A program made the position numbers and the translations under genes. A DNA stretch of 64,000 nt from an uncultured Candidatus Saccharibacteria bacterium (GTDB lineage Bacteria > Patescibacteriota > Doudnabacteria > UBA920). Below, piece after piece: positions 2,625 to 4,688 of this stretch. Each line of letters begins with the position of its first letter. Position 1 is the first letter of the stretch. The stretch spans positions 66,772 through 130,771 of the forward strand of contig CAZHIA010000005.1 of assembly GCA_964532425.1 (NCBI GenBank), written 5' to 3'. Under the pieces are notes generated by a model. It was not told the DNA's origin. It was given only the letters and a program-made list of their open reading frames with translations, and did not search any database.

Positions 2625-4688
2625 TCAAATATCCAGGTTCTTGACAGTCTTGGCGTGCGTGGTAATAAACCGCTTTCTCGGCGCCACTTCATCGCCCATG
2701 AGTACCTCAAAGATTTCACTGACTTTTTCCGCATCTTCGATGTTGACCTGCAGCATGACGCGATTTTCTGGGTCCATGGTCGTTTCCCAGAGCTGGCCAG
2801 GGTTCATTTCTCCCAAACCTTTGTAGCGCTGGATGGTGTATTTTATTCCATCAATGTTTGCGGATGTGGTCTCTTCCCCGGTTTGCTCAGGGGTGGATTC
2901 TTCGGCTTCTTCGGGAACATTTGACTTTTGACCTTTGACATTTGACTTTCTGATTCCCCTTTTGACCTTCGCCTCCGCAATCAAATCCTTTAAAATCTCA
3001 TCACGCTCCGGTTCGGAGAATGCATATTGGAATTCCTTGCCGACTTGGACCCTAAACAGCGGCGGCTGGGCAATGTAAAGGTGTCCATTCTTGATAATGT
3101 CCGGGAAGTAGCGGTAGAACAGCGTCAGCAGCAATGTGCGAATGTGGGCGCCGTCCACGTCAGCATCGGTCATAATAATAATGCGGTGGTAGCGCAGCTT
3201 AGCGACGTCATAGAGCTCGCCAATGCCGGTGCCGAAAGCAATGACCAGATTCTTAATTTCCTGGGAAGACAGCATTTTGTCCAGTCTGGCGCGTTCGACA
3301 TTCAGGATTTTACCTCGGAGCGGCAAGATGGCCTGAAATCTGCGGTCGCGACCCTGCTTGGCAGACCCACCGGCCGAGTCTCCCTCAACAATATACAGCT
3401 CGCATTTGGCCGGATCCGATTCTGAGCAGTCCGCCAATTTTCCTGGCAATGCCAAACCTTCCAACACACCCTTGCGAATGACGCTGTCGCGTGCAGCCCT
3501 GGCAGCCATTCTGGCTTTGGCCGCCAAAATAGCCTTTTCGATGATCTTACCGGAATCCTGAGGATGCTCTTCCAAGTAGGTTTCCAGTTCCTGGCTGACC
3601 ACGCCTTCCACGGCTGTTCTTACTTCTGGGTTGCCAAGTTTAGCTTTGGTCTGCCCTTCGAATTGCGGGTTGGGTAACTTGACGGAGATGATAGCTGAAA
3701 GTCCTTCGCGCATATCTTCACCGGTCAGCTTCTCATTCTCTTTGACGTAACCGTTTTTCGTGGCGTAGTTATTGATGACGCGGGTCAGCGCAGTGCGGAA
3801 ACCTGTTACGTGCATGCCACCTTCCGGGTTGTAGACATTGTTCGCATACGACAGAATTCGTTCGTCATAATCATCCGTATACTGAATGGCGACCTCAACC
3901 GCGATGTCTTCAATCTGCTTGCTGATGTAAATGGGAGAGGATTTGGCCTTCTTGTTGCGATTAAACTGCCTGAGGTAGCTTAAGATTCCGCCTTCAAAGT
4001 AGTACTGGTAGGTAAGATTCTCCTCGTCGCTATGAATGACAAAGTGCAGTCCCTTGGTCAAGTAAGCCTGGCTGCGCAAGTGCTCCAGAATGGTGCTGAA
4101 TTTGAACTTGGTCGTTTCAAAAATCGTGCCGTCCGGAAAGAAGGTTATTTTGGTGCCATGTTGGACCGGGTCATTCTTATCGATCTTTCCCACAACTTTA
4201 ATCGGCCCCTGTGGCTTGCCAATCTTGAATTTCATTTCATAGATCTTGCCTTCCTTGCGCACCTGGGCGATCAAATTGGTCGAAAGGGCGTTCACAACGG
4301 AAGCACCCACGCCATGAAGACCGCCGGAAACTTTATATCCCGAAGCCTCGCCGCCGAACTTACCTCCGGCATGCAGCACCGTAAGTACTGTTTCCAGTGC
4401 GGATTTTTTGGTGGTTTTATGGATATCGACGGGAATACCGCGACCATTGTCTTCCACGGAAACGCTGCCGTCGGCATTGACGTTAACCCAAATACGGTCG
4501 GCGTAGCCAGCTAAAGCCTCATCAACACAGTTGTCTACGATTTCCCACACGAGGTGGTGCAAACCAGTTTCTGAAGTGGAACCAATGTACATGCCGGGGC
4601 GCTTGCGGACCGGCTCCAAACCTTCCAAAACGGTAATGTTTTCCGCTGTATAGGTTGATGCTTTATTCGTCTTTTCGTCTTTTGCCAT
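2625..4688 (-). CDS. gyrB: DNA gyrase subunit B
   Basis: 687 aa. GHKL ATPase ([34 protein letters not shown]), Toprim ([31 protein letters not shown]) and C-terminal tail ([20 protein letters not shown]). Carries a roughly 35-aa acidic/low-complexity insertion before RYKGLGEM. Confidence 0.95.
2917..2950. repeat. Tandem heptamer repeat block (atttgac, ttttgac, ctttgac, atttgac) inside gyrB.
   Basis: 7-nt periodicity of TTTGAC units. On the coding (minus) strand it encodes [10 protein letters not shown] within the GyrB insertion. Confidence 0.6.

Follow-up and report, generated by a model that had tools for sequence, protein, structure and literature searches.

The gyrB gene of an uncultured bacterium of the Doudnabacteria carries, inside its reading frame, a block of four 7-nt units of the form NTTTGAC. 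The gene lies in a 64,000-nt stretch of contig CAZHIA010000005.1 (assembly GCA_964532425.1), 86% of it coding, which we call the window. We propose that the block is a single-arm copy of a short dispersed repeat, resembling the STRR sequences of cyanobacteria, that has expanded specifically in this genome, and that it overwrote native linker DNA of gyrB and is tolerated there; we put the probability of this reading at about 70%. The nearest GyrB homologues, at 77-86% identity, carry the names Candidatus Doudnabacteria or Patescibacteria; our placement of the organism follows the names of homologues at 78-82% identity. The gene and its repeat units are as follows.

2625..4688, minus strand: gyrB, an intact open reading frame (ORF) of 687 aa; the identical protein P0001 has recorded Pfam matches to HATPase_c, DNA_gyraseB, Toprim and DNA_gyraseB_C
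2916..2946, plus strand: the heptamer block, a 31-nt module AAC+(NTTTGAC)x4 with 0 mismatches to the family consensus
2947..2953, plus strand: a degenerate fifth unit, TTTCTGA; the string ATTTGACTTTCTG also occurs in the intergenic arm at 58893
2960..2966, plus strand: a lone TTTTGAC unit that encodes part of AKVKR

The plus strand at 2916-2953 reads AAC ATTTGAC TTTTGAC CTTTGAC ATTTGAC TTTCTGA, with the four exact units at 2919-2946; an earlier reading made from the letters of the window (hereafter the sequence-only reading) had placed four such units and their peptide at 2917-2950, and was right to within 2-3 bases. Tandem Repeats Finder reports the block as 2920-2949, with period 7, 4.3 copies and 86% matches. 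Together with positions 2947-2948, its coding strand (AAG TCA AAT GTC AAA GGT CAA AAG TCA AAT GTT) encodes 11 residues, K581-V591. The lone unit at 2960-2966 is out of register, its start lying 20 nt from the array on the coding strand, not 21. Shuffle counts rule out that the block is chance or native sequence: the two-unit pattern TTTGACNTTTGAC has 10 matches in the window against 0.02 expected, a number reached in 0 of 100 shuffles, and TTTGAC has 87 matches against 42.9 +/- 6.4 expected. An assembly error at the array is unlikely, because the independent Logan assembly of SRR11567520 (L001) has an identical gyrB, array included. No RNA structure was found at the gyrB copy (z +1.8), and a hairpin in the gyrB mRNA was rejected on this value and on the absence of a partner arm from the sense strand.

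The module recurs throughout the window. A scan with the pattern AACATTTGAC(NTTTGAC)3, allowing up to 8 mismatches, returned 12 arms, against 0 in 20 shuffled controls. Two arms are unpaired and both of these are intragenic, in gyrB and murD; the other ten form five convergent pairs (12426/12883, 24313/24403, 30050/30117, 48068/48154 and 58893/58954) and lie in spacers or on gene boundaries, which bears out the earlier statement that the family also occupies intergenic spacers. The paired arms are listed here, hairpins having no assigned strand.

12426..12456, plus strand: a family arm in the spacer between a four-helix-bundle gene and PIN_3, with the PIN_3 start codon inside a unit
12853..12883, minus strand: its inverted partner arm, in the spacer between NYN and the four-helix-bundle gene; the NYN TAA overlaps the first unit and the four-helix-bundle ATG lies in the last
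24313..24403: a hairpin, two arms plus loop, between atpD and atpC, with the atpD TGA in the first unit
30050..30117: a hairpin downstream of the ATP synthase A-chain gene (30127..31032)
48068..48154: a hairpin that fills the 93-nt spacer between ftsW and the DUF4012 gene
58893..58954: a hairpin between a Pfam-less gene (58960..60288) and a TrwB-like gene, starting 5 nt past the stop codon; positional counterparts of the Pfam-less gene in two related loci (L129 and L130) carry DUF8128

Alignment gives all 12 arms the same sharply defined outer edge, (A)ACATTT(G/A)AC, and about four units, next to unrelated flanks. The gyrB and murD copies have 0 and 1 mismatches to the module, respectively, and the intergenic arms 1-7. 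Paired arms sit between co-directional genes, 0-5 nt past stop codons, and repeat units sometimes supply the stop codon itself (the TGA of atpD, the TAA of NYN) or, at the four-helix-bundle gene and at PIN_3, the start codon. Shared multi-unit strings that include variant units argue that arms were copied from one another and did not arise by independent slippage: the arms at 12426 and 48154 have a 24-nt string in common, containing the variant unit ATGTGAC, and the ATTTGACTTTCTG string, with its inner TTTCTG, points to a copy relationship between the gyrB block and the arm at 58893. In relatives at 81-86% GyrB identity (L002-L007), we found no TTTGACN array in the roughly 85 kb scanned, and the ftsW/DUF4012 spacer, 93 nt here and nearly all hairpin, measures 1-7 nt in three relatives. 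By sequence comparison, then, the family is a genome-specific expansion, with the gyrB block among its copies.

The intergenic elements fold well on either strand. Folding covered four of the five pairs and left out the arms 12426/12883, which lie about 400 nt apart around a gene. Of the eight folds made from the four short-loop hairpins, seven had energies of -24 to -31 kcal/mol; three of the hairpins had z scores of -3.5 to -5.5 on both strands, the element at 48060 being weaker (z -2.3 and -0.8). Stability showed no consistent asymmetry between the two strands, and strand-specific RNA stability was rejected on that ground. Intrinsic terminators and sigma-70 promoters at the elements were likewise rejected, since T-runs are absent from them and counts of promoter and terminator signatures are near the shuffled expectation. 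An Rfam scan of the window returned only four tRNAs and no family at the elements, no Pfam match to a transposase, RAYT or reverse transcriptase was seen among the roughly 60 ORFs of these 64 kb of genome, and the arm alignment contains no consistent flanking target-site duplication, the paired elements having inverted arms. The two inverted arms at 12426-12883 bracket a 128-aa 23S_rRNA_IVP gene (12466..12852, minus strand; four-helix-bundle, Avd-like), and relatives have different genes or none between NYN and PIN_3; this layout recalls 23S rRNA intervening sequences, in which inverted repeats surround such a gene.

The block lies in a segment of GyrB that is itself an insertion relative to compact GyrB proteins.

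2853..2975, minus strand: the GyrB linker found throughout the clade, first Lys-rich and then acidic (about residues 572-612), a native insertion at the Toprim insertion site as judged from orthologues

The sequence-only reading had taken an acidic insertion of about 35 aa around the block to be foreign, non-native sequence, and had named in advance what would count against this: orthologues from the same clade sharing an equivalent insertion encoded by unrelated nucleotides. That is what we find for the insertion as a whole. Our sample comprised the 120 nearest GyrB orthologues, with 74 GyrBs of other phyla, among metagenome matches listed, as controls; the latter came from a scan on a universal GyrB peptide pattern whose listed matches were mostly from distant phyla, L131 and L137 being the close ones among them, and the distant loci served as controls. 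Between QPPL and RYKGLGEM, 120 of 120 orthologues have 71-90 aa and the query has 80 aa (79-83 aa in its nearest relatives), against 35-43 aa in compact GyrBs of other phyla from metagenomes and 56-74 aa in a few GyrBs of about 60% identity. Across the 120 orthologues the linker keeps a constant architecture, Lys-rich, then acidic, then (S)TVEETT-like, then xDG(V/I)KY, and is hypervariable in sequence. Because all of them carry it, with constant architecture and unrelated nucleotides, we conclude from the alignments that the Lys-rich/acidic insertion of about 40 aa is native and clade-wide.

What stands of the invasion claim concerns the heptamer block, about 11 of the roughly 40 extra linker residues: it matches the 12-copy module with 0 mismatches, and at its place the close orthologues in L002-L007 have unrelated Lys-codon sequence. 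Since the linker is as long as those of the nearest relatives, the block would have replaced native linker sequence and would not be a simple addition. The query aligns to residues 405-554 and 735-804 of E. coli GyrB in solved structures, with E. coli residues 555-734 opposite the linker; the 170-aa Toprim insertion of E. coli GyrB (PDB 3nuh, 6rks) thus has the same insertion point, but it is a folded domain, whereas the Doudnabacteria linker is about 40 aa long, of low complexity and without detectable similarity to it. The linker is probably disordered, as an AlphaFold pLDDT below 50 at residues 582-605 weakly suggests in a model that is poor throughout (mean 57). The same clade also has an intein-containing gyrB: the orthologue P0090, at 1123 aa, exceeds the others by about 430 aa and contains the intein domain PF14890.

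Reading frame dictates which arms can be translated. NTTTGAC contains TGA, and a 7-nt unit passes through all three frames in 21 nt, so three NTTTGAC units always meet that stop codon; GTCAAAN is stop-free in all three frames whatever the N, and encodes residues of the K, S, N, V, Q and G type. A full TTTGACN hairpin is therefore untranslatable, because its NTTTGAC arm meets TGA, and the 3'-type arm alone can be translated. A scan of public genomes for TTTGACN x3 agrees with this rule: 26 of the 151 arrays found lie in long ORFs, with GTCAAAN as the sense strand in 26 of 26 and the opposite orientation in 0. Intragenic copies of the TTTGACN family can persist only as GTCAAAN-sense single arms.

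Two further housekeeping genes of the window carry heptamers in frame, one of them with a different unit.

50284..50323 (arm 50285-50315), plus strand: a second in-frame single arm, inside murD (49318..50727, minus strand), encoding NGQWSNVKGQMF
43948..44021, minus strand: an in-frame hairpin in lepA (42381..44219) with the unit AAGTTCA / TTTGAAC, a complete 74-nt hairpin in a LepA G-domain loop

In MurD, NGQWSNVKGQMF lies between the P-loop helix and the LTGNIG strand, and a structure model (pLDDT 91.7) predicts that the residues encoded by the repeat close the P-loop helix and make up the loop leading to strand 147-150; as RNA, the murD arm is unstructured (z -0.5). The lepA hairpin is strongly structured as RNA (z -6.5), and the unit that would contain TGA reads TTTTCAC instead, with a compensating GTGAAAA in the partner arm. 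Arrays or hairpins occupy one LepA loop in four of four genomes examined, and this loop is 46-61 aa long in four Doudnabacteria; the E. coli LepA loop has about 35 aa. We read both the gyrB copy and the murD copy as probable passengers, tolerated at putatively permissive sites.

These proteins prove to be repeat-bearing across the clade, with units that change from genome to genome. We devised a peptide test that asks whether 10-residue windows can be back-translated as a 6+N heptamer array, with block-shuffled sequences as controls. Among 52 window proteins only GyrB, LepA and MurD gave a match. Among 120 MurD orthologues, 69 matched (126 clusters against 2 in controls), at three recurrent sites, one about 30 residues before the P-loop and two about 18 and 150 residues after it; among the 120 GyrB orthologues from Doudnabacteria, 9 matched, all in the linker (12 clusters against 4), and among the GyrBs of other phyla, in the matches listed, 0 of 74. 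The MurD arrays were confirmed in DNA: L128 has (AATTTCG)4, arrays are also present in L129 and L130, and (GTCAAAG)3 occupies L128 10247-10281, at the site about 30 residues before the P-loop. Unit families common across genomes in MurD (orthologues P0122-P0240) are ACAAGTN, ACAATTN, GTCAAAG, AATTTCN and TCCAATN. The inserts turn over quickly, as two pairs of MurD orthologues indicate: P0148 and P0159 are 91% identical and have unrelated inserts of equal length, and P0139 and P0142 (87%) have 30 and 11 aa, respectively, at site B.

The gyrB linker behaves in a similar way among the 11 distinct Doudnabacteria gyrB sequences compared as DNA. It holds (AGTCAAA)~4.5 in L211 and (CGAAAGN)4 in L212, and in L006 (about 11740-11790) and L131 it holds in-frame GC palindromes, GCAGGCC-NNN-GGCCTGC, that encode VAQAPGLP or VGQAPGL; a VAQAPGLP-type motif recurs in the GyrB orthologues P0052, P0055, P0059 and P0068. 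The L131 linker also contains the palindromes CCGCC-AAA-GGCGG and CCCGCC-TCC-GGCGGG. These alignments and peptide matches show that different heptamer arrays recur at the same putatively permissive loops of essential proteins across relatives. Among short tandem periods, 7 dominated in each set that we examined, with the highest density in the window (10.9 per 100 kb, against 4.6 and 2.3).

Beyond the Doudnabacteria, in-frame GTCAAAN arrays occur in other members of the Candidate Phyla Radiation (CPR), in proteins that we take from their translated ORFs to be UvrB, MiaA (twice), ValRS, YchF, a MiaB-like protein, mevalonate kinase and glycosyltransferases. Outside the CPR, arrays encoding peptides like SQKSKVK (L016, L022, L055, L089, L103, L120 and L121) lie in what, from the translations, are presumably a transketolase-like protein, MurG, SecA, a Nostoc nonribosomal peptide synthetase/polyketide synthase linker, cysteine desulfurase, a DegT-type aminotransferase and aconitase. 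Exact TTTGACN x3 arrays are common in Nostocales genomes, and in cyanobacteria TTTGACN arrays are nearly always intergenic. A broader hypothesis, which we regard as rather unlikely, is that an active process of period-7 repeat writing or cassette replacement operates in Doudnabacteria, and perhaps in the CPR generally, overwriting permissive loops (the GyrB linker, the three MurD sites, the LepA loop, and loops in UvrB, ValRS, MiaA, YchF and others) with changing units and much faster than the proteins diverge.

For the gyrB block itself we favor the following sequence of events. The repeat mostly sits as opposed pairs that would form imperfect hairpins in operon spacers, right after stop codons, and one copy may have overwritten some 31-38 nt of the Lys-codon-rich part of the native linker at the Toprim insertion site. 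It would have arrived not by transposition but by template switching or ectopic gene conversion from another arm onto A-rich Lys-codon DNA, and it could have survived because the GTCAAAN sense is open in three frames and gives small hydrophilic residues, in a linker that would tolerate nearly any such sequence. Replacement is favored over clean insertion, as the 31-nt module does not divide by 3 and the linker has the length usual in its nearest orthologues (80 against 79-83 aa). The gyrB copy is most likely a neutral, selfish passenger, a neutrality that we infer.

Several points weigh against this account. With no genome of more than 95% identity to display the empty site, the exact boundaries are seen only indirectly, as is the kind of event: conversion, insertion with deletion, or growth in place. 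No mobilizing enzyme was found by Pfam among the window ORFs. At a comparable place in L006 other codons spell KKSNVGQ, which could be an older, decayed array. Selective neutrality is an assumption. The coding copies are the most perfect of the family (0 and 1 mismatch against 1-7 in intergenic arms), which could reflect youth or selection, and the GyrB structure model is of low quality (mean pLDDT 57).

The block might instead have grown in place, by slippage from a chance GTCAAA-like seed in A-rich Lys codons, and converged on the family sequence. The unchanged linker length, the A-rich composition of Lys-rich DNA, the arrays of other units that arose in the same linker in other lineages, and the dominance of period 7 everywhere sampled would all fit. 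Slippage yields identical units, however, and the four gyrB units differ at N just as those of other arms do; the copy also has the AACATTT end and four-unit length of the family and the inner TTTCTG of arm 58893, and convergence with 0 mismatches on a 24-position consensus is very unlikely. We think this origin improbable. Marginally less probable in our judgment is that NTTTGAC arrays are functional cis-elements, binding a protein or acting as an RNA signal at gene boundaries, with the gyrB copy as an internal regulatory or pause site. Their fixed four-unit length and conserved core with a free N, the precise placement of arms at stop and start codons, and the four-unit preference reported for other bacterial heptamer repeats (PMC4692102) speak for such a role; against it, the orthologous spacers of relatives lack the elements, unrelated units with periods of 7, 8, 9 and 11 build similar hairpins in the same genome, promoter and terminator signatures and any Rfam family are absent, and the gyrB copy is unpaired and unstructured.

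That the whole insertion of about 35-40 aa is foreign, repeat-derived DNA, or in a weaker form that successive invasions built the linker over deep time, we consider very improbable: heptamer arrays or GC palindromes do occur there in at least 5 of the 11 distinct gyrB sequences from Doudnabacteria, and the linker is hypervariable, but it is present with conserved architecture in 120 of 120 orthologues, has no period-7 signal outside its Lys-rich part, and has acidic counterparts in some GyrBs of about 60% identity on metagenome contigs. A phase-variable contingency locus or programmed frameshift, in which gain or loss of units toggles the gyrB frame, is scarcely credible, even if coding heptanucleotide repeats are so used in neuO of E. 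coli K1 (PMC13001214); gyrB is essential, the array falls at residues 581-591 of 687, it has only four, non-identical units, and two independent assemblies agree on it. Short repeats can mislead assemblers, yet the idea that an artefact or chimera placed the repeat in gyrB is next to negligible in weight, given the intact frame, the normal linker length, the identical Logan assembly and the analogous arrays in gyrB of other genomes.

Taken as a copied arm of an expanded repeat, the block invites comparison with several known systems. The name STRR, for short tandemly repeated repetitive sequences, reportedly comes from Mazel et al. in 1990, for arrays of the units CCCCAGT, TTGGTCA and CAACAGT. 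The family described here is like them in its head-to-tail 7-nt units and its many dispersed copies, far above chance and mostly intergenic. It differs in its unit, NTTTGAC, and in its host, which belongs to the CPR and not to the heterocystous cyanobacteria, even if NTTTGAC arrays do occur in Nostocales; here, moreover, there is a defined four-unit module with a terminal signature, opposed pairs occur as hairpins, and copies are translated in essential genes. As cited in PMC4692102, dispersed tandem heptanucleotides were reported from Calothrix PCC 7601. Among bacterial simple repeats, heptamers are over-represented, show a four-unit preference and lie at positions within 50 bp of stop codons (PMC4692102).

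The Rickettsia palindromic elements (RPE) are selfish repeats inserted in frame in coding genes (Ogata 2000, 2002, as reviewed in PMC10969869). As with RPE, the present family is dispersed between genes, and some of its copies are read in frame within housekeeping genes that have nothing else in common, in a reduced genome and at sites compatible with function. RPE, however, are palindromes of about 150 bp that add tens of residues, whereas the gyrB and murD copies are 31-nt single arms of about 11 residues; the unit length here does not divide by 3, a full palindrome is seen in the lepA copy alone, and the gyrB copy adds no residues relative to orthologues (80 against 79-83 aa). The five paired elements resemble the REP, BIME and REPIN extragenic palindromes of proteobacteria (PMC3116915) in being short imperfect palindromes, transcribed in operon spacers just past stop codons, with stable stems. 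They differ from REP and REPIN in that their arms are internally tandem-repetitive and copies lie inside ORFs, the gyrB copy being intragenic and unpaired; no RAYT transposase was seen in the 64 kb of the window. Set beside miniature inverted-repeat transposable elements, the pairs show inverted arms and no consistent flanking duplication in the alignment, and the single arms are a misfit.

Translated 7-nt units, three of which give a 7-residue peptide period, are also found in neuO, where a variable-number tandem heptanucleotide repeat in coding sequence acts as a phase switch (PMC13001214); in neuO, a dispensable gene, the units are all alike, lie at the 5' end and work as an on/off switch, whereas gyrB has four non-identical units in the middle of an essential one. 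In Borgs, tandem repeats give rise to disordered protein regions, and ORF repeat units are all divisible by three (PMC9879509). There too, fast-evolving nucleotide tandem repeats add disordered segments and homologues are repeat-bearing at the same places, but the 7-nt unit here is read, in successive units, in all three frames. Our literature search, whose coverage is incomplete, found no description of heptamer arrays in coding genes of CPR.

The combination is new: a 7-nt family, intergenic hairpins, single translated arms in essential CPR genes, and sites hit repeatedly across a clade. Essential genes are expected to lose repeats whose unit length does not divide by three, and here a 7-nt family is translated in gyrB and murD, and another unit in lepA, with a stop-codon rule that predicts the surviving orientation. 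The Rickettsia picture of selfish DNA within genes is thereby extended to the CPR, with a concrete source for lineage-specific insertions in its housekeeping proteins. What makes the case interesting is that in-frame heptamer arrays recur across the clade and turn over fast, and, with orthologous sites in many genomes, this is a tractable system for the origin and spread of tandem heptamers. If true, period-7 rewriting would be a new mode of localized protein-sequence turnover and would offer a handle on the dominance of heptamers among bacterial simple repeats. On the practical side, heptamer blocks can mislead alignments, gyrB-based phylogenies, and gene callers at start and stop codons.

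Other repeats of the window and its relatives use different units. An ACGTAAT x4 array lies at 38945-38972, in the spacer between 38372..38896 and 38994..40382, and represents another unit family; AGCTT(A/G)N-type arrays occur at 39-63 of the window, at 13835-13858 in L131 and at 18281-18303 in L212. In L003, whose GyrB is 85% identical, a (TAGCGTA)n hairpin at 12066-12155 starts 5 nt past the gyrB stop codon. A second palindrome family with tandem-repeat arms (GTATTTC plus 4 nt, period about 11) stands at 28943-29032 and 29601-29685, on either side of atpF (29032..29592), and further spacer palindromes with repetitive arms are found at 25830-25938 (period 9, atpG/atpD), 44222-44320 (period about 9-10, murJ/lepA) and 6691-6825 (period 8, in the spacer by the tRNA_bind gene). 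Repeat-built hairpins fill many operon spacers in the window, and in the ATP synthase operon they fill most of them.

Phenylalanyl-tRNA synthetase is encoded at 4930-6108 as a single 392-aa protein with tRNA-synt_2d and FDX-ACB domains, a monomeric, mitochondrial-like architecture. A free-standing tRNA_bind protein (6244-6699) adjoins it, and L212 has pheS plus pheT instead.

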